Shown here in pieces: positions 34,054-47,149 of a DNA stretch of 64,000 nt. Position numbers and translations under genes: made by a program. Positions within the stretch are counted from its first letter, which is position 1. Each line of letters starts with the position of its first letter. Source of the stretch: Nitrospirota bacterium (GTDB lineage Bacteria > Nitrospirota > Thermodesulfovibrionia > Thermodesulfovibrionales > Dissulfurispiraceae). The DNA is taken from positions 288,001-352,000 of the forward strand of contig CAVPZX010000003.1 of NCBI GenBank assembly GCA_963710375.1. Reading direction: 5' to 3'. Under the pieces are notes generated by a model, which had not been told where the DNA came from, searched no databases, and saw nothing but the letters and a program-made list of their open reading frames with translations.

Positions 34054-34907
34054 GCTCCATGGCCTCTTCTAACAAAGGCAGACTTTTTAACGCCAAAGAT
34101 TTGCCCACCATTCCCTCTTCCCACATGAAGATAGTTAAACTCATCGAGGACGGAGGCTATTCCATGGATGACCTCAGCGCCTTAATAGAACGTGACCCGG
34201 TGATTTCGAGCAAAGTTCTCCGCCTCGTTAACTCGCCTTATTATAACCTCTACGCCGAGATAGCCTCAGTGAATAAGGCCATTGTCCTTTTGGGAGCGAA
34301 CCTTCTGAGGGGACTGGTATTGAGCACTTCACTCTTTCAGAGCGCTGATGAGTTATTGCCGGGGCTGTGGGACCACTCCTACTTCTGTTCTATAGTGGCG
34401 GCTTCCCTGGCTGACAGGCTGCTCATGCGAAACATCGAGGATATAATGACAGGCGCGCTGCTTCATGATATTGGGAAGATAGTGATACGGAAAGAATTGC
34501 CGGAGGAATCAAAGCTAATAGATCAACTCATTTTCTCAGAAGAAATCCCGATGATCGAGGCCGAAAAAAGGGTTCTTGGTGTCACTCATTGCGACACTGG
34601 CTCGTTTCTCGCAGAAAACTGGAACTTCCCCTCGCTCATCAAGGACATCATATCTTTTCATCACTTTCCGTCGCTATGCCTGTTGCACAAAAAGGAAGCT
34701 GCTGTGTCGCACCTTGCCGATTTTATAGTTAAGGGTATAGGCGTATCATATTCACGAGATATTTTTGTACCGGCCCTGGACGAGGAGGTATTGAAATCTT
34801 TGTCCCTGGCGGAAGAAGAGTTGCCGGACATCCTGGTCGGGGTGCTGGAGCTTGCCGATAACAACCCCGTTTTTTCAAAGTATCTGATTGGCGGAATAAA
34901 TGCCTGA
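34050..34907 (+). CDS. HDOD domain protein
   Basis: LPTIP, DPVISSKVLRLVNSPYY, AIVLLG, WDHS, ALLHDIGK, W.FP, HH.P. Confidence 0.92.
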   Translation: MSSMASSNKGRLFNAKDLPTIPSSHMKIVKLIEDGGYSMDDLSALIERDPVISSKVLRLVNSPYYNLYAEIASVNKAIVLLGANLLRGLVLSTSLFQSADELLPGLWDHSYFCSIVAASLADRLLMRNIEDIMTGALLHDIGKIVIRKELPEESKLIDQLIFSEEIPMIEAEKRVLGVTHCDTGSFLAENWNFPSLIKDIISFHHFPSLCLLHKKEAAVSHLADFIVKGIGVSYSRDIFVPALDEEVLKSLSLAEEELPDILVGVLELADNNPVFSKYLIGGINA

Positions 34908-36492
34908 CAAGAACTTCTCTGATATATTATGCAGCCTCTCCAGCATCCTCTATTCTTTCAAGGATGCGGAATCCATGTGTTCCGACGTCGTAAACCTGCT
35001 GATCTCTGCCCCTGCTGTCAAGAGGAGCCTGGCAATTATGAAGGGGTGGCGCGGAGAGTTCCACACTGTTGGTTATTCGGGGATATCACGGATCAGAGGA
35101 CTGGAACTGAAAAATGTTCCTTGCGACAAGGACACTAACGAGTTTATTTCCCAGATATTGAAAAACAAAGAGACGGTGGTAGTGGACAATCTGCCCCACG
35201 GCATAGCTTCCCCCGACTCGACAGGAAAGAACTTAATGTGCCCCATCATGTGCAAGGGCAAGGGTGTCGGCGTACTAATTGTCGAAGTTTCAGACGACCC
35301 GGACAGCATCGTTAAGTGGATAGATGCTGTTGCCCGGTACCTCTCACTTGCTATCGAGAACCATACTATCCACAACGAATGGCTCGAAAACCGTATCGAA
35401 CTGGTCCACGAGATTGAGACCCTGCAGCTCATGTACGAGATCGGCAAGGAAATCCTCGTCAACTTGAGGACAGAGGAGATAATTCAAACCGTAGCACTGA
35501 TGATACGCAGGATCATTCCATGTGACGGAGTCACCATGACACTCTTCGACGAGGAGAAAGGCGCATTCAAGGTCATTGACTCTACCGGCACGGGACTCGA
35601 AAAAGGGCTGGAACTTACGGAGGCTGACGTGCCTTTTTACCGCGTTGCAGTGCGCGGAAAGACATTCTACCAGCACGATATCACTCTCGACATCAAGGAT
35701 TTTTCAAAGTTGGCTGAATGGGCTGAGGAGAAAAACGTATATTCCTATTTCTGCGTGCCGCTCATGGTGAAAGACAGACTCTTCGGCGCTCTCATCCTGT
35801 CCAGCGTCCGTTCCGCCTGGTTCTCAGGCACTCACCTTGCTGCTGCAGAAAAGGTGGCGACCCAGGTAGGCATTGCACTCGCAAACGCCAAACTGCTGGA
35901 GGATCTAGACGAGATTTTCATAGGCACGGTAACATCGCTGGTAAATGCCATTGACGCCAAATCTGACTGGACGCGGGGCCACTCCATGAGGGTGGCGGCA
36001 TATGCGGTCAGGCTGGCGCAGAAGGTGGGTTTCAGCCGCGAAAAGACCGAGAGGATGCGTATAGCCGCTATTTTGCACGATATAGGGAAAATAGGTATCT
36101 ACGAGGCGATACTGGACAAGCCGGGCAAACTGACGAAGGAAGAGGTTGACGAGATGAGGAAACATCCGTCCCAAGGCGTGGATATCCTCGTGCCTCTGAA
36201 TGCTCTCAAGGACATCATCCCTATTATCAAGCACCACCATGAGAGGTACGATGGCGAGGGTTATCCTGACGGCCTTGCGGGTGAAGACATCCCTCTTGAA
36301 GCACGTATATTGGCCATTGCCGACGTGTATGACGCGATGAGATCAGAAAGGCCTTACCGCAGGGGCCTGACCTTCGATGAGGCGGCGCAGGAGCTGTTGA
36401 ACGAAGCGGGAAGGCAGTTAGACCCGGTGCTTCCCGGTCGCTTTGTTCAACCTGCTGCAACAGTCCGGACTCACAGACCACGATGCCCGTGA
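34900..36492 (+). CDS. GAF-GAF-HD-GYP cyclic dinucleotide phosphodiesterase
   Basis: DAKS.WTRGHS.RV, LHDIGK, HHERYDGEGYPDGL, IADVYDAM.SERPYR. The C-terminus may be frameshifted near 36450 (alternative stop at 36496). Confidence 0.92.
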   Translation: MPDKNFSDILCSLSSILYSFKDAESMCSDVVNLLISAPAVKRSLAIMKGWRGEFHTVGYSGISRIRGLELKNVPCDKDTNEFISQILKNKETVVVDNLPHGIASPDSTGKNLMCPIMCKGKGVGVLIVEVSDDPDSIVKWIDAVARYLSLAIENHTIHNEWLENRIELVHEIETLQLMYEIGKEILVNLRTEEIIQTVALMIRRIIPCDGVTMTLFDEEKGAFKVIDSTGTGLEKGLELTEADVPFYRVAVRGKTFYQHDITLDIKDFSKLAEWAEEKNVYSYFCVPLMVKDRLFGALILSSVRSAWFSGTHLAAAEKVATQVGIALANAKLLEDLDEIFIGTVTSLVNAIDAKSDWTRGHSMRVAAYAVRLAQKVGFSREKTERMRIAAILHDIGKIGIYEAILDKPGKLTKEEVDEMRKHPSQGVDILVPLNALKDIIPIIKHHHERYDGEGYPDGLAGEDIPLEARILAIADVYDAMRSERPYRRGLTFDEAAQELLNEAGRQLDPVLPGRFVQPAATVRTHRPRCP

Positions 36493-40815: not shown

Positions 40816-40884
40816 TTTCTTTTAACGATATTTTTGATTATACAACATACTGCGTGCATATATAAAAGGTTAGAGCATAATCAG

Positions 40885-40913
40885 TTGACATTACTCAGTT
40901 TATCTGTTACTTT
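40885..40913 (+). promoter_or_regulatory. Sigma70-type promoter, copy 1
   Basis: TTGACA-N17-TACTTT with TGn extension; ATG begins 5 nt after the -10 box; homologous to 43573-43601. Confidence 0.7.
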
Positions 40914-40918
40914 AACCT

Positions 40919-42524
40919 ATGGGCATTGAGACGGAAAAAGGGAATGGCATAGTGCCCCATACGGAAGAAAGTCACCAGAGTACGACAGATCTTATCCTGG
41001 CAAGGCTGCAGGAATACCACGACTTCCCGGCTATGTCAAATACTGTTGATGTTATGAATCGGTTCAAGGCTTCCGAAGATGTCTCAGTTTCCGAATTTGC
41101 CAATATTATTTTGAAGGATTATGGTTTAACGTCAAAGATTTTGAAACTTGTAAACAGCGTCAGCTATGCTCAGTTCGGAGAGGTTACGACTATTTCTCGT
41201 GCAATAGTCCTCATTGGGTTTGAAAACATCAAGAATCTTGCTGTTACACTGATGCTTTTTGATTATTTCCAGAAAAACAGACTCAAATCCCGAGCATGTG
41301 GATACAAAGGTCAAATCCTTATACAGCGCAATCATGGCTCAGAAGGTCTCGCATGAGAAATCTTTAGACAATGAGGAAGAAGCGTTTATCTGTTCGCTTT
41401 TCCACACTTTCGGCAAAATGCTGGTGACCTTTGCCCTGCCGGAGAAAATAGAGGAAATAAAACTTCTCAGCAGTGAAAAAGGTATTTCAGAAAATGAGGC
41501 TGCACTCTCTGTCCTCGGCGAGCGTTATGAAGAGGTGGGCGTTGCAATGGCCAGGGACTGGCATTTTCCGACCATAATCATTAATAGCATGCACAAACTC
41601 CGCGGCATGGAAATTACTACCGGCGCCGACAAACTCGATAAACTCAATGTCGTTGCCTTCTTCTCCAATGAAGTCGCTAATATATTGTCGACAACTACTA
41701 ATAAATATGAGATGGATGAGAAAATCGGAAAACTCGCAAGAACGTTCAGGCCCCACCTGGGTGATCTGGACAGGAGGATGGACAGAATCATCAATGCGAG
41801 TCTTGATGACCTGAATGAGTTTTCAAGAATTTTTAATGTCAATCTTAGCGCGGTCCCTTTTACAAGGCAGTTGCTGGTATGGGCCGGTAAGCCGGAGCAG
41901 GCTGTGCAACCCAAAAACGAGCTGCTCTTCGCTGACTTTTCGACTGAAGAGCTTGAAACTATTGATATTATCCTTGATTCCGAAAAAAGAGACACCCCCG
42001 AAAGTATTTTCACGAAGGGCATTCAGGATATCAATAGTTCGATACTGAGCGATTTCAACATCAACGATGTCGTCAGGATTGTGCTGGAAACCATGTACAG
42101 GGGCATGCAATTGTCGGGGCAGGCAAAGGCCCTGTTCCTGGTAAAGGAGACCAAAGCGCCTATAATGAAGGTCAGATTCGGGTTCGGGAGCCGGGTTGAG
42201 GAACTGAAAAAATGGTTCGAAATTTCACTAGACGACCCCACCGACATCTTCAATATATCTATAGTCAAGGGGCATGACCTTGTAGTGAAGAACATCGAGT
42301 CTCCCGATATTAAAAAGTTGCTGCCCAAATGGTTCAGAAGCAAGGCATTTTCGAGGATCTTTTTTGTCATTTTGCCTATCATAGTTAATAAAAAGCCTTT
42401 GGGGATATTCTATATAGAGGGGGACAGGGAAGACTTTCAGAAAGTTTCCGCCGTGCATTTAAACTACCTGAAAATGTTGCGCGATCAGACGGTCGTGGCT
42501 ATCAGACAGAAACATTGGTACTAA
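40919..42524 (+). CDS. HDOD plus C-terminal GAF-like protein, copy 1 (+1 frameshift at 41281)
   Basis: DFPAMS, ILKDYGLTSKILKLVNS, TISRAIVLIG, EEAFICSL.H.FGK, W.FP. Colinear with 44817-46391 once the extra A is removed. Start at 40919 or the GTG at 40952. Confidence 0.85.
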
Positions 42525-43013
42525 ATGAAGATCCCCGAACCTAATATGACTTTTGTCTTTATTGCGAAGGAGGAGATACTCCGGAACATTGTCAACACCC
42601 ATGATTTTATCCTGGTCCAGGGCTGGAAAGGTACAGGAAAGACTGTTACCGCGCTTAAAGCCGTCGCCGGGATGGGAGATATATATTATTATAATGGGTC
42701 GGCAGAGGAAATACCGCAACATACCGGCCAACTGAACGTTGTGAAAAACTGCCAGGAGCTGCGCGCCATTCAGCCCGGGAAGCAGTGCATCATCTTCGAT
42801 AATCTGAACCATCTCGACAGTGAAGCGCGCAATATTTTAAAGGATATGATACTGGAAAGGATAAAAGACAGAAAAATACTTGTTATCACACAAGTGGTGC
42901 TCGATGCGCAGGACATCCTGGGGAATATGGATGTTGTTGTTCGCTTCAGGCAGAACACCGCGGAGATGCTGGATACGAAATTGTATAACCTAAATAGTTG
43001 TTGCCGTTTTTAA
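42525..43013 (+). CDS. Small P-loop NTPase, copy 1
   Basis: Walker A GWKGTGKT; Walker B-like CIIFDN; 162 aa. Confidence 0.8.
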   Translation: MKIPEPNMTFVFIAKEEILRNIVNTHDFILVQGWKGTGKTVTALKAVAGMGDIYYYNGSAEEIPQHTGQLNVVKNCQELRAIQPGKQCIIFDNLNHLDSEARNILKDMILERIKDRKILVITQVVLDAQDILGNMDVVVRFRQNTAEMLDTKLYNLNSCCRF

Positions 43014-43022
43014 AATTCGTGC

Positions 43023-43063
43023 ATCTGAGCGCCTGAATGCGCAAGTTATTTATTCGCGAGCCC
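43023..43063. mobile_element. Solo end of family A MITE
   Basis: atctgagcgcctgaatgcgcaagttatttattcgcgagccc matches 48714-48754. Confidence 0.85.
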
Positions 43064-43508
43064 TCAATTCCATGTATAGCTTTTTTTTCTCACATGCCCC
43101 TTTCCAGCCGCACCCGTTGCAGGATGATTCATACCATGCCCGAAAGATTGAGGGAAGCATATTCCGGATGTCCGTCCATCTGACAAACTGGCCGGATAAA
43201 AGTCCGAGCAGACGCAAGGCCAGACGGTCCATGGCCAGGATGTCATCCTCAACCTGGGCGCTGTGCATGCACCTGTTAAATTTCAAAGAAGGGCAGTATT
43301 TACAAATGGCATCGGCCCCGTTATGCACCTGAACTATGCCCTCTTCCGCGACACCAATAACGTTCCTCAAGTTTTCGACAAACGCGGCGTCATAGCCTTC
43401 GCCCGAGAAAAAATGAAGACAGATTAGGTGATGGCCCCTTAATGAGCAACTCTCAATCTTTTGGCTGTGGTTCTTCTTAAATGCGCTTTTCAGGCTAATC
43501 AATGACAT
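43050..43508 (-). CDS. DUF1284-family Cys/His-rich protein
   Basis: LRGHHLICL.FF.GEGY...FVEN, DAIC..CP, C..C.W...C. Confidence 0.8.
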   Translation of the reverse strand: MSLISLKSAFKKNHSQKIESCSLRGHHLICLHFFSGEGYDAAFVENLRNVIGVAEEGIVQVHNGADAICKYCPSLKFNRCMHSAQVEDDILAMDRLALRLLGLLSGQFVRWTDIRNMLPSIFRAWYESSCNGCGWKGACEKKKLYMELRARE

Positions 43509-43572
43509 TATTAATTATATAACATACCTAGTGCATATATAAACGGTTAGAGCATCTTCGGTAGCGGGTCAG

Positions 43573-43601
43573 TTGACAGAGCCCAATATATCTGTTAGTT
43601 T
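43573..43601 (+). promoter_or_regulatory. Sigma70-type promoter, copy 2 (leaderless arrangement)
   Basis: TTGACA-N17-TAGTTT with TGn extension; GTG start 5 nt after the -10 box, no SD. Confidence 0.7.
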
Positions 43602-43606
43602 AACTT

Positions 43607-44800
43607 GTGGACAAGTTGAAGGGAAGAGATATTATCGAAAAGATCAAGGCCGGCTATTCGCTGCCTTCTCTATCAGCCGTTGCACTCAGGCTCGTTGAAA
43701 TAGCATCCAACGAATATGTTTCCCTGAGTGAAATGGCGGACCTTATTGAGAAGGACCCCGGTCTTACGGTCCGTCTGGTCACTATTGCCAACAGCGCATT
43801 TTTCAGGTCTACGGATCCGGTCTCGACTGTGGAGCAATCTGTCATGAGAGTCGGCGTCAACCATTTAAGAATCATGGCTTTATCATTGTCACTGAGAGAT
43901 ACGTTCCCGATGGGCAAACTCGGTCCAATGGATTACGAGAAGTTCTGGCGTTCTTCGCTCTACCAGGCATTAATCGCGAAATCTTTTGCACAAAGGTTGC
44001 AGACATGCAGTCCTGAAGAGGCCTTTGTTGCCGGTCTTGTCCTGGAGATCGGGCTGCTGATATTTGTTGACACCTTCTTAAAGGGACATGTAATTGAAAA
44101 GAATCTGGACCTTCATCCTTTGGAGAAACTCCTGGAATGGGAGGCCATGCATTACAGGACCGATCACAGGGAGATCGGGGCTGCAGCGCTGAGTTATTGG
44201 AAGTTTCCTTCAGTTATTATAGAATGCCAGCATGTCCATAATATAGAATCCAGGGACGAACAGGTACCTCCTCTGGCCCTGATCTGTGAAATGGCGCGTG
44301 AATTCTCCGCGCTAATTTGTGAAGAATCGATGGAGTGGAGCCCGCTTTTCAGCAGGGCTGAAGCTATGTACGGCATTAATCAGGGTTTGCTCACAGATAT
44401 TCTTGTCGCCACATTTGATGAGGTCCAGGAGGTTGCCGATGGACTCAAGGTCAATATGAACAAGGAGAAAGATCTTATCGCTCTCATCGAAAAAGCGAAC
44501 CTTTCTCTGGGCGGTCTTTCGGAAAAGATGCTAAAGCTTCAGGAAACAGCATTAAAACATGGCTTGCCGTCTTTCGAAAGTCTGGGAGATCTCGAAGAAA
44601 AGTCAGCCGTAAGGGACACGTTGCAGGCAGTAGCGCATGAGATAAGGAACCCGCTTCTGGCGGTCAGCGGTTTTGCGAAGAAACTTTCGACAGCCCTCGA
44701 CCCTGCCTCTGACGGCTGGAAATATGTACAGGTAATTGTCGAGGAGTCCAGGAGGCTCGAAAGCGCTCTGGCAAACATGACCTGCTCTAACAAGTGCTGA
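43607..44800 (+). CDS. HDOD plus HisKA (DHp) protein lacking an HATPase domain
   Basis: LPSLS, DPGLTVRL..IANSAFF, FWRSS, EEAFVAGL..EIG, W.FP; H-box AVAHEIRNPL...GF, E..RLE, then stop. Confidence 0.85.
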   Translation: MDKLKGRDIIEKIKAGYSLPSLSAVALRLVEIASNEYVSLSEMADLIEKDPGLTVRLVTIANSAFFRSTDPVSTVEQSVMRVGVNHLRIMALSLSLRDTFPMGKLGPMDYEKFWRSSLYQALIAKSFAQRLQTCSPEEAFVAGLVLEIGLLIFVDTFLKGHVIEKNLDLHPLEKLLEWEAMHYRTDHREIGAAALSYWKFPSVIIECQHVHNIESRDEQVPPLALICEMAREFSALICEESMEWSPLFSRAEAMYGINQGLLTDILVATFDEVQEVADGLKVNMNKEKDLIALIEKANLSLGGLSEKMLKLQETALKHGLPSFESLGDLEEKSAVRDTLQAVAHEIRNPLLAVSGFAKKLSTALDPASDGWKYVQVIVEESRRLESALANMTCSNKC

Positions 44801-44816
44801 AAAAGGGGATGGCATA

Positions 44817-46391
44817 GTGTCACAAACGCAAGAAAATGGCCAGAGCACAAAAGATCTGATCCTGGCAAGGCTGCAGGAAAACAGTGATTTTCCTGCCATG
44901 TCTAATACCATGAACATGATTAATCAGTTGAAGGCTGCCGAAGACGCCTCTGTTACTGAATTAGCCAATATTGTTTTGAGGGATTATGCATTGACGTCGA
45001 AGATCATAAAAGTTGTAAACAGCGTCAGTTATTCCCAGTTCGGGGAAGTCACTACTATTTCCCGTGCAATCAATCTGCTTGGGTTTGAAAACATCAAGAA
45101 TCTTTGCCTCACTTTAATGCTTTTTGGTCATTTCCGGGAGAACAGCTCAAATGTCGAACATGTAGATACTATGATCAAATCTTTTTACAGCGGATTCCTG
45201 GCCCAGAAGATATGCGGCGAGGTATCCTTTGAGAACAAGGAAGAGGCGTTTATCTGTTCGCTGCTCCACAATTTCGGCAAGATGCTGATATCCTTTGCCT
45301 TGCCTGAAACAATAAAGGAGGTAAAATCTGTAAGCCATGAAAGAGGTATTTCAGAAGATGCGGCTGCCCTTTCGGTCCTCGGCGGGAGATATGAGGAGAT
45401 AGGCATGGCAATAGCCAAGGGATGGAATTTCCCGACCAAGATCATTCGCAGCATGCACAAACTCAGCAGAACGGAAGTCAAAGACTCGTCCGATGAGATC
45501 GATCAGCTCATTAGCATTGCTTCCCTTTCCAATGAAATATCGAACATACTATCGAGCAGTTCGGAAAAGAAGGAGATGGATGAGAGGCTTGGCAAACTTG
45601 CCGACATGTTCAAGACTACTTTCACCGGGTTGAACCGCAAGGTGATAACCGGTGTTATTAATGAAAGTCTTGAAGACCTGAATCAGTTTTCGGCTATTTT
45701 TCATATCAACATGGATGAAGTTCCCTTTAACTGGCAGTTGATGACCTGGTCGGACAAGGTGGTCGAACCGTCAGCAACGGTTGCAGGAGTTCTACACGCG
45801 GACTTTACATCTGAACAACTAAAGTCGATTGATGTTATTGCCGGATCTGAAAAAGAAGATACCCCGGATAGCGTATTCTCAAAGGGCTTGCACGATGTCA
45901 CTTGTTCATTATTGAGCAGTTTCTCGCTGAACGATATAATAAGGATTGTGCTGGAAACTATATACAGAGGCATGCAGCTGTCAGGGGAGGGGAAAACCCT
46001 CTTTTTGGTCAAGGATACAGAGGCCCCTGTCATGAGAATAAGATTCGGGTTAGGGAGCGGGATTGAGGGATTGAAGAGGTGGTTTAATGTTACGTTGGAT
46101 GATTCCGGCGATATTTTTAATAAGGCGATAGTTAAGCAGCATGATCTCGTTATCAAGAGCGTCGAGCCTCCAGCTATTAAAAAATTGTTGCCCGAATGGT
46201 TCAAACATAGGGCATCTGCCGGAATCTTTTTTATTGTTTTACCTATTATAATAAATAATAAACCGATCGGTATGTTTTATGTAGAAGGGAATAAGAAAGA
46301 ATTTCTGAAAGTCTCAGCTGAACATTTAAACTACCTGAAAATGTTGCGCGATCAGACGGTCGTTGCGATCAAACAGAAACGTTGGAGCTAA
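44817..46391 (+). CDS. HDOD plus C-terminal GAF-like protein, copy 2
   Basis: Intact paralog of 40919-42524; ends LPIIINNKPIGMFYVEG...LKMLRDQTVVAIKQ. Confidence 0.88.
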   Translation: MSQTQENGQSTKDLILARLQENSDFPAMSNTMNMINQLKAAEDASVTELANIVLRDYALTSKIIKVVNSVSYSQFGEVTTISRAINLLGFENIKNLCLTLMLFGHFRENSSNVEHVDTMIKSFYSGFLAQKICGEVSFENKEEAFICSLLHNFGKMLISFALPETIKEVKSVSHERGISEDAAALSVLGGRYEEIGMAIAKGWNFPTKIIRSMHKLSRTEVKDSSDEIDQLISIASLSNEISNILSSSSEKKEMDERLGKLADMFKTTFTGLNRKVITGVINESLEDLNQFSAIFHINMDEVPFNWQLMTWSDKVVEPSATVAGVLHADFTSEQLKSIDVIAGSEKEDTPDSVFSKGLHDVTCSLLSSFSLNDIIRIVLETIYRGMQLSGEGKTLFLVKDTEAPVMRIRFGLGSGIEGLKRWFNVTLDDSGDIFNKAIVKQHDLVIKSVEPPAIKKLLPEWFKHRASAGIFFIVLPIIINNKPIGMFYVEGNKKEFLKVSAEHLNYLKMLRDQTVVAIKQKRWS

Positions 46392-46392
46392 A

Positions 46393-46869
46393 ATGGAATG
46401 CCCGGCCCCTCAAATGGCTTTTATTGCGAAGGAAGAGATACTCCGGAACATCGTCAGTACACATGCTGTCATACTGATCGAAGGCTGGAAAGGTACAGGG
46501 AAGACTATTACCGCGCTTAAAGCCGTCAACGGCAAGGGAGATATCTACTATTACAACGGTACGGCGGGGGAAATACCGCAGTGTTCCATCCAACCGAACA
46601 TTGTGAAAAACTGTCAGGAACTGCGCGCCATTCCGCCCGGAAAACAGTGCATCATCTTTGATGATCTGAACCGTCTGGACAGCGAAGCACGCAGTATTTT
46701 AAAGGATATGGTGCTGGAAAGGAAGAAAGACAGGAAAATAGTCGTTATCACGCGGGTGGTTCTCGATGCACAGGACATTCTGGAAAATATGGATGTTGTT
46801 GTTCGCTTCAAGCAGAATACCGCAGAGATGCTGCATACGAAACTGTATGAGCTGGACAGCTTTCAGTAA
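46393..46869 (+). CDS. Small P-loop NTPase, copy 2
   Basis: GWKGTGKT, CIIFDD; close paralog of 42525-43013. Confidence 0.8.
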   Translation: MECPAPQMAFIAKEEILRNIVSTHAVILIEGWKGTGKTITALKAVNGKGDIYYYNGTAGEIPQCSIQPNIVKNCQELRAIPPGKQCIIFDDLNRLDSEARSILKDMVLERKKDRKIVVITRVVLDAQDILENMDVVVRFKQNTAEMLHTKLYELDSFQ

Positions 46870-46874
46870 CAATG

Positions 46875-47093
46875 CAATTCAGACAGTAGATGATTCTCTT
46901 TCGCTACTCTCCGTTTTGACAGTTCTATGACTCGTTTCGCTACAGTCGCAAAATTCCCTTCGGTCAGTTTCGCTCCTGACTGCCACCCCAAAAGTCTGTG
47001 ACTTTTGGGGACCCCGGACTTTTACGCTCACTCGCCAAGAACTGTTTCCAAAACTCCGCTAATGCTTCAGAGATTCATCTACTGTCTGAATTG
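46875..47093. mobile_element. MITE-like element, family B (copy 3)
   Basis: TIRs caattcagacagtagatga / tcatctactgtctgaattg; interior related to 26805-26994, plus an extra ccccaaaagtc-tgt-gacttttgggg hairpin. Confidence 0.85.
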
Positions 47094-47149
47094 AACTTCA
47101 GTAACGATGTCCTCTTCCTCTGCCTCAATACAGTATAATAAAATAAATT

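Follow-up and report, generated by a model that had tools for sequence, protein, structure and literature searches.

A 64,000-nucleotide stretch of DNA from a Nitrospirota bacterium of the family Dissulfurispiraceae (contig CAVPZX010000003.1, positions 288,001 to 352,000, here called the window; assembly GCA_963710375.1, 3.19 Mb in 9 contigs) was analyzed for a two-gene arrangement that occurs twice on its plus strand. Each time, a gene for a protein joining an HDOD domain to a GAF domain (HDOD-GAF) is followed almost without a gap by a gene for a minimal P-loop nucleoside triphosphatase (NTPase). HDOD-GAF copy 1 occupies 40919..42524 and encodes 534 residues from its ATG when an extra base at 41281 is discounted (523 residues from a GTG at 40952); NTPase copy 1 (42525..43013, 162 residues) begins 0 nucleotides after it. 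HDOD-GAF copy 2 (44817..46391, 524 residues; Pfam HDOD E 2e-42, GAF_2 E 2e-5 and below cut-off) is followed after 1 nucleotide by NTPase copy 2 (46393..46869, 158 residues). The two NTPases are 79% identical and share the Walker A motif GWKGTGKT; their Walker B motifs are CIIFDN in copy 1 and CIIFDD in copy 2. Two HDOD-GAF genes with P-loop partners of about 160 residues at 0 to 1 nucleotide, carrying GWKGTGKT and CIIFD, had been described in an original prediction from the sequence, and the arrangement, motifs and coordinates were confirmed once the extra base in copy 1 was discounted. That base splits HDOD-GAF copy 1 in the window into two open reading frames of 145 and 421 residues. Because it was absent from 4/4 short-read runs (3 studies; one run is possibly the source sample), it is an assembly error and the gene is intact. 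Scattered indels occur in the assembly, and by eye Lon and PurL appear as split genes. Short-read contigs span both NTPase genes without indels. No RNA run matching the stretch was found, a result that has no bearing on its expression.

The NTPase was found to be closely tied to HDOD-GAF. HDOD-GAF sequence lies directly upstream, on the same strand, in 24/24 NTPase loci of the family; its frame is intact in 22 of them, is cut off by the end of a contig in G152 and survives in G050 as a truncated remnant with a stop. Intergenic gaps range from 0 to 159 nucleotides, and 13 of the 22 that could be measured are 14 nucleotides or less. Among 10 named loci, partly from the same genomes, HDOD-GAF is adjacent in 9 and cut by a contig end in one. 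Gene order differs among the named loci, with the NTPase before HDOD-GAF in L005 and between two HDOD-GAF genes in L004 and L006, and the flanking genes and chromosomal site differ among linked loci as well. Of 53 other genomes of the family, 23 have both genes, 3 HDOD-GAF only, none the NTPase only and 27 neither; the presence counts of the two genes match in five genera (g2, g7, g9, g10 and g22). The reverse search recovered HDOD-GAF in 26/53 family genomes and in 11/16, 4/36 and 3/4 genomes of the families f6, f9 and f14. The dependence is one-way: HDOD-GAF sequence lies next to the NTPase in every case, and HDOD-GAF often occurs without the NTPase. These counts support the view that the pairing is a conserved and uncharacterized one. 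NTPase homologues standing apart from HDOD genes, named beforehand as the outcome that would speak against it, were not encountered in the 24 family loci.

The same held for the second such outcome, that the homologues would be fragments of a larger known ATPase. A word search gave 29 homologues of the NTPase, and a profile search returned 37 matches from 1.84 billion representatives, comprising 22 proteins of 151-165 residues, 11 shorter pieces, one kinase fusion (573 residues) and 3 unrelated sequences. The ratio of nonsynonymous to synonymous substitution rates (dN/dS) was 0.13-0.37 in 16/16 NTPase pairs, which indicates purifying selection. No parent ATPase was found in the host genome, where the best other match had E 0.04. 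Judged by these comparisons, the NTPase is a real stand-alone family and not a piece of a larger ATPase. Collections of 72,556 plasmid and 50,697 phage records contained no match. Neither window NTPase reaches a Pfam cut-off, and 41 members scanned with PADLOC and NCBIfam matched only generic NTPase entries, and these weakly; weak Pfam matches among the same members were to AAA_22 (34/41), nSTAND5 (29/41) and nSTAND3 (24/41), with the KaiC profile at 4/41. A search for longer fused forms scored 0 of 7,995 candidates, which is weak evidence, as it overlooked the 573-residue fusion P0109. This protein, from a cluster of 4 (including P0128-P0130), consists of a Ser/Thr kinase with an N-terminal Cys-pair motif, a Pro-rich linker and then the minimal NTPase. 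Its NTPase part groups inside the linked clade on a long branch of the tree, and a metagenome scan with P0109 gave 75 kinase loci, none with the NTPase or HDOD-GAF.

Relatives with names come from Dissulfurispiraceae, Thermodesulfovibrionales and unclassified Nitrospirota. Strong NTPase matches were confined to the host's family (23 of its 53 other genomes) when 301 genomes of the class were searched, and a 401-genome sample of the phylum gave no further strong match outside that family. Weak matches outside the order, which by eye were an IstB-like gene and clamp-loader delta-prime genes, were dropped, and so was a long cyclase-NTPase inside the order. Families f9 and f10 and a few f1 genomes gave weak matches, which belong to a sister family of stand-alone P-loop proteins of about 180 residues (hhalign probability 99%; loci L037-L042, L059-L067, L196:3797-4366 and L197:3651-4208). 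Its members have Ile or Leu after the P-loop Lys (14/14), a DE Walker B (13/14) and motifs of their own, GNP.D and GCMK; by these residues the sister family is degenerate in a way complementary to the minimal NTPase. It was not found in the host genome, it had no HDOD neighbor in the loci viewed, and two members that were examined had no Pfam match at E 0.01. Its neighbors vary, and one member lies beside a PilZ gene and motAB-like genes.

An AlphaFold model of NTPase copy 2, with 41 sequences, reached a predicted local distance difference test score (pLDDT) of 87.9 and a predicted template modeling score of 0.85. In it, an N-terminal helix is followed by a five-stranded core of the additional strand, catalytic glutamate (ASCE) type and a terminal beta-hairpin, with no lid. 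Gly-31, Gly-36, Lys-37, Thr/Ser-38 and Asp-90 are present in 41/41 sequences. A Walker A of the form GxxxxGK[T/S] and a Walker B Asp thus occur throughout, and the model and the fold matches agree with an ASCE placement. A catalytic Glu is conserved neither after the Walker B Asp nor at the end of the additional strand. The residue after the Asp is D in 29 sequences, N in 6, G in 5, A in one and E in 0/41 (DD in 29/41 rows, or 18/25 clusters at 70% identity), and a Glu follows strand 2 in at most 16/41. According to the accessible part of 10.1101/2022.06.23.497301, the catalytic Glu of ASCE enzymes normally occupies one or the other of these sites, and activation by a partner is a general requirement of P-loop enzymes.

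Several positions outside the catalytic motifs are also strongly conserved. Lys-13, Glu-14, Glu-15, Ile-16, His-24, Arg/Lys-138, Lys/Arg-140 and Thr-143 are kept in 40-41 of the 41 sequences; positions 138 and 140 are basic in 41/41, and Arg-18 is present in 39/41. Mean conservation is 0.73 in the N-terminal helix, 0.73 in the hairpin and 0.70 in the Walker A segment, and it is lowest in residues 55-84 (mean 0.35). The conserved helix and hairpin suggest a binding surface or nucleotide contacts. No single match stood out in the fold searches: domain 1 of a DEAH helicase, NSF D2, clamp loaders, CobU, AVAST5 and RecA all fell within Z scores of 12.9-10.6, and TM scores did not exceed 0.61 in the PDB or 0.64 in a viral library. 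AAA+ matches mostly cover model residues 4-142 (Z 10.6-12.6), and RecA-type matches, which tie with the AAA+ and helicase matches, reach into the hairpin. Structure prediction had been proposed as the way to sort the protein as AAA+, KaiC/RecA or STAND-like; it returned a bare ASCE core and assigned it to none of the three.

The partner protein was modeled from copy 2 (pLDDT 80.8) as an HDOD domain with a helical extension (residues 11-312), a disordered linker (315-346) and a GAF domain (350-521). It passes the PF08668 cut-off (145 bits versus 22.9), and three of its top four fold matches are 3HC1, 3M1T and SadB. Residues 350-521 of the model match GAF structures at target TM scores of 0.64-0.77, in support of the GAF fold. 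By comparison with 3HC1, two metal-binding His residues are replaced in 56/56 rows; the Asp of the HD motif is replaced in at least 53/56 rows (T, N, S, A or L among those displayed), and the preceding His is kept in 56/56. By sequence, then, the metal site is degenerate and lacks what marks an active HD-superfamily phosphohydrolase. Kinase-less HDOD-GAF proteins of 480-570 residues are common elsewhere, including clusters from Pseudomonadota. In family f6, HDOD-GAF is fused to a Ser/Thr kinase (L188) or a class III cyclase (L187) or is followed by a kinase-TPR gene; genomes of this family (G030, G040, G130, G195 and others) carry up to six HDOD-GAF paralogues each, some of them fused to kinase or cyclase. 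Elsewhere, HDOD-GAF is found repeatedly with Ser/Thr kinases and with a cyclase.

We propose, with confidence that is evenly balanced, that the NTPase serves as a detachable switch subunit, which binds nucleotide and docks on an HDOD-GAF adaptor that is itself non-catalytic. From its invariant P-loop Gly and Lys, its Thr/Ser and its Walker B Asp, the NTPase likely binds Mg-ATP, and it probably hydrolyzes ATP slowly or only upon stimulation, with a low intrinsic turnover. It is predicted to dock on HDOD-GAF, so that its ATP or ADP state would turn the adaptor on or off, the contact probably being made through the charged N-terminal helix (KEEILRN..H) or the terminal hairpin (D.VVRxK..TAE). The NTPase would thereby fill the slot held by a Ser/Thr kinase or cyclase in fused HDOD-GAF proteins, as a detachable regulatory domain. 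Input would come through the GAF domain, and the HDOD domain would contact the downstream target. By analogy with other HDOD proteins, the output would pass through protein-protein contact and might plausibly concern motility or surface attachment; a flagellar correlation was uninformative, since FlhA is present in 56/61 family genomes. A bolder form of the proposal, which we regard as unlikely, would make the NTPase a minimal ATP switch that stands by itself and corresponds, within the ASCE division, to a small GTPase. HDOD-GAF would give the catalytic stimulus in trans and read the nucleotide state, acting as a general docking adaptor for interchangeable domains (Ser/Thr kinase, cyclase or minimal P-loop).

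A number of observations weigh against the main proposal. In three other families, 18 loci from 13 genomes, which are part of the matches found there, have HDOD-GAF without an adjacent NTPase, and 3 genomes of the host's own family have HDOD-GAF and no NTPase. Even on the window's contig, a third HDOD-GAF gene (about 403850-405420, minus strand) has no NTPase next to it. G050, which is 99% complete, has an intact NTPase beside the truncated HDOD-GAF remnant, and no other copy was found. The NTPase and HDOD-GAF trees both follow genera, with a distance correlation of 0.82 over 23 pairs (G152 and G050 were left out, their HDOD-GAF being incomplete); the pair is therefore inherited vertically and the linkage counts are not independent events, and the linkage could be explained as plain inheritance from one ancestral operon. 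When 21 linked HDOD-GAF copies were compared with 17 unlinked ones for positions specific to the linked set, only differences that track relatedness appeared. Finally, real ATPase activity is possible, given the STAND-like second Asp in most members.

One alternative is that the two genes are co-transcribed and co-inherited without their proteins touching, with the NTPase acting elsewhere in the pathway or the linkage being historical. Congruence with the genera, the frequency of HDOD-GAF alone and the broken HDOD-GAF in G050 all favor it, as does the sister P-loop family in whose viewed loci HDOD genes are missing from the neighborhood. It nevertheless seems improbable to us, as the adjacency has persisted through co-duplication and through changes of gene order and chromosomal site, presence and absence match in the five genera, and wherever the NTPase occurs in a genome, HDOD-GAF is there too, if only as a remnant.

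The fold matches bring in a second alternative, that the NTPase is a CobU- or thymidine kinase-like phosphotransferase acting on a small molecule or a protein, possibly HDOD-GAF itself, in place of the fused Ser/Thr kinase. Among stand-alone proteins, CobU comes nearest in size and topology (Foldseek TM 0.58-0.60, 161-179 residues; Z 11.2 over residues 18-150), thymidine kinase also matches the fold, and HDOD-GAF does recur with Ser/Thr kinases. A kinase needs no water-activating Glu. The CobU match is, however, tied with the helicase, NSF D2 and clamp-loader domains, and the sequence profiles favor clamp-loader AAA+ cores (E 1e-5). Residues 55-84, in which a lid or an acceptor site would be expected, are the least conserved part of the chain, and the Hanks kinase fusion P0109 is better suited to a regulatory appendage than to a second kinase. 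We consider this alternative quite unlikely.

Still less credit is given to an active oligomeric ATPase, minimal AAA+ or STAND-like, that remodels HDOD-GAF or assembles with it. The second Asp of Walker B would serve as the base, and Arg-138 with Lys-140, or Arg-18, as the finger in trans; the DD pairs, the basic residues at these positions and the weak AAA_22, nSTAND5 and nSTAND3 matches would all be consistent with such a role. The second Asp is, however, N, G or A in 12/41 rows, including window copy 1, the model has neither lid nor helical domain, and the position of the clamp-loader Arg finger aligns to non-basic residues, so that this reading appears very unlikely. That the NTPase is a decayed ATPase fragment, an assembly artifact or part of a mobile defense cassette, as indel errors in the assembly and weak generic PADLOC matches might suggest, is scarcely credible given the constant length of the 22 full-length representatives, the low dN/dS of the NTPase pairs, short-read coverage of the NTPase genes without indels, a host genome with no parent ATPase, the lack of plasmid or phage matches and the vertical pattern of the tree.

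Two further genes lie between the copies. A minus-strand DUF1284 gene (43050..43508; Pfam PF06935, E 5e-18), on which the original prediction was silent, encodes a small Cys/His-rich protein; it adjoins the NTPase/HDOD-GAF pair in some relatives' loci, though not constantly. The gene before HDOD-GAF copy 2, predicted to be HDOD-DHp, was confirmed at 43607..44800 on the plus strand (397 residues; Pfam HDOD E 9e-43, HisKA E 7e-8). Its product joins an HDOD domain to a DHp domain with an intact H-box and stops after the DHp; no HATPase match was found in it, so it lacks what defines a sensor histidine kinase. The H-box is kept in 20/20 loci viewed and strong matches occur in 26/61 family genomes, which makes HDOD-DHp, by its sequence, a conserved stand-alone protein. 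Genus g1 is the only one in which it lies next to the pair; the neighbors are unrelated in 15/15 loci viewed from other genera, and 10/23 other NTPase-bearing genomes have no strong match to it. HDOD-DHp is therefore not a core part of the system, and the suggested connection of the pair to phosphorelays is weakened. Other HDOD-DHp contexts were also seen. On contig C4 of the same genome (L002:6769-10002), a second HDOD-DHp-like gene with the H-box His changed to Phe comes immediately after a P-loop ATPase that carries a fused RsbW-type kinase domain, and after a STAS gene; here too a P-loop protein is associated with HDOD, in a partner-switching context. In genus g10 (L208, L210, L212 and L214), HDOD-DHp lies tail to tail with a protein of about 450 residues, one of which was examined and had a HATPase_c match and no HisKA at E 1e-4; the two are possibly a split histidine kinase pair.

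Upstream of both units the sequence is duplicated, with 72% identity between 40824-40925 and 43501-43613. A sigma-70-like promoter (TTGACA, 17 nucleotides, TACTTT) is predicted on the plus strand at 40885..40913, 5 nucleotides before the start codon of HDOD-GAF copy 1, and its second copy at 43573..43601, 5 nucleotides before that of HDOD-DHp. Divergent promoter-like sites, as consensus matches only, face mutS (40837..40866, minus strand) and, in the duplicate, DUF1284 (43514..43543, minus strand). The sigma-70-like layout is kept in 3/3 relatives with HDOD-DHp at this site, and TTGACA, 17-18 nucleotides and TA(C/G)TTT stand 5-6 nucleotides before the start codon in 5/5 such starts (40885-40919 and 43573-43607 in the window; L003, L005 and L007). 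This distance suggests leaderless transcripts. A promoter scan found 16 sites versus 11.1 ± 3.5 expected by chance and missed both plus-strand sites, which rest on their conservation. A shared regulator site was rejected as an explanation of the upstream element, which occurs just twice in the genome; a duplicated two-way promoter fits better. By its sequence the locus has the look of a tandem duplication in which the two-way promoter region was included, and copy 1 appears to have lost its HDOD-DHp. The third HDOD-GAF gene, likewise absent from the original prediction, is preceded by a histidine kinase and an NtrC-type regulator. It is 93% identical to copy 2 over the first 379 aligned residues and 65% over the last 135, which suggests a mosaic from recombination between paralogues; a frameshift in it is absent in 4/4 short-read runs (one study).

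Three side observations concern the surroundings of the pairs. In run X7, one contig links 40877 to 43068 and passes over all of copy 1 (50 letters on the short side), suggesting a related strain without the first pair. Short repeated intergenic elements at 43023-43064 and 46900-47100, whose contig depth is very high and which include an inverted repeat (25 nucleotides, 96%), are probably a genome-wide repeat family. A tandem GAF HD-GYP-type gene at 34900-36492 lies 4.4 kb upstream of the pair, beyond mutS; its C-terminal end looks atypical, and another indel may be present there.

No description of the HDOD-GAF/NTPase pair was found in the literature, in searches that covered listings and the openings of abstracts and few subscription papers; in the part of 10.1101/2021.11.05.467447 that could be consulted, HDOD is mentioned and no more. 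The pair is real, conserved and apparently undescribed, of the type that joins a P-loop switch to an adaptor, and narrow in range, as it was seen in one Nitrospirota family, through genome assemblies. HDOD domains occur widely and have been linked time and again to biofilm and motility phenotypes, and in the available text of PMC11004494 they are still called of unknown function. A small, probably soluble two-protein module offers a direct way to ask what HDOD-GAF binds and whether a nucleotide switch controls it. If the bolder form of the proposal, with a minimal ATP switch and HDOD-GAF as a general docking adaptor, were true, HDOD domains would gain a defined biochemical role.

Compared with known P-loop classes, the NTPase is, on its model, an unusually stripped ASCE domain that fits clearly into none of the AAA+, STAND and RecA classes. 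It shares the N-terminal helix and five-stranded core with AAA+ proteins; it differs in having no C-terminal helical lid with sensor 2, as the modeled chain ends about 20 residues after strand 5, and as a strand. It also has no Arg finger, since the clamp-loader SRC motif aligns to ENM/ENI-type residues and no column within 122-133 is conserved as basic. Within AAA+, it matches clamp-loader subunits (RFC, DnaX/HolB), RFC subunits being the best PDB profile matches (E 1e-5) and the structural match over helix and core reaching Z 11.8. NSF D2, which is mainly a nucleotide-binding domain, matches at Z 12.6 (root mean square deviation 2.9, 128 residues aligned). Unlike clamp loaders and NSF D2, the NTPase lacks the lid and the Walker B Glu and ends in a predicted beta-hairpin. 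With STAND and nSTAND proteins, for which two consecutive acidic residues in Walker B are the criterion, it shares a DD-type Walker B in most members (DN, DG or DA in 12), weak nSTAND3, nSTAND5 and AAA_16 matches and a structural match to AVAST5 (Z 11.2); its N-terminal F.AKEE resembles the STAND hhGRExE motif. It differs from them by the absence of helical (HETHS) or winged-helix domains, sensor and effector, and the Pfam scores of the window NTPases are far below cut-off. Two-gene nSTAND2 systems and inactive STAND modules are described in the accessible part of PMC8195603, and their composition differs from that of the present pair. The likeness to the RecA/KaiC class lies in the predicted hairpin at 135-149 after strand 5 (block pLDDT 88-95), and structural matches to CobU, RecA, Rho and TcpA extend to residues 150-158. 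The NTPase differs from this class in having no conserved Glu after strand 2 and no KxR/KxK finger at the hairpin end; Lys or Arg occupies the hairpin-end position 150 in 27/41, and the basic R-x-K pair (41/41) lies earlier in the chain than the RecA/KaiC finger, at 138-140.

On the side of HDOD-GAF, the HDOD fold is shared with the studied proteins SadB of Pseudomonas, GsmR of Xanthomonas and Cj0248 of Campylobacter. SadB, like HDOD-GAF, has a degenerate pocket and, according to the accessible text of PMC12075610, acts as an adaptor without a ligand. All three affect motility, as far as the available part of PMC11004494 reports. They differ from HDOD-GAF in their partner domain, which is YbaK-like or a receiver and not GAF, and a P-loop partner is not mentioned for them in the text that was accessible. 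The kinase-HDOD-GAF fusions (P0090, L188) share the whole body of HDOD, helical extension and GAF with the window protein (34% identity over 512 residues, E 8e-105). The window HDOD-GAF differs from them in carrying no fused enzyme and in having instead a separate minimal P-loop gene beside it, an arrangement seen only in the host's family.

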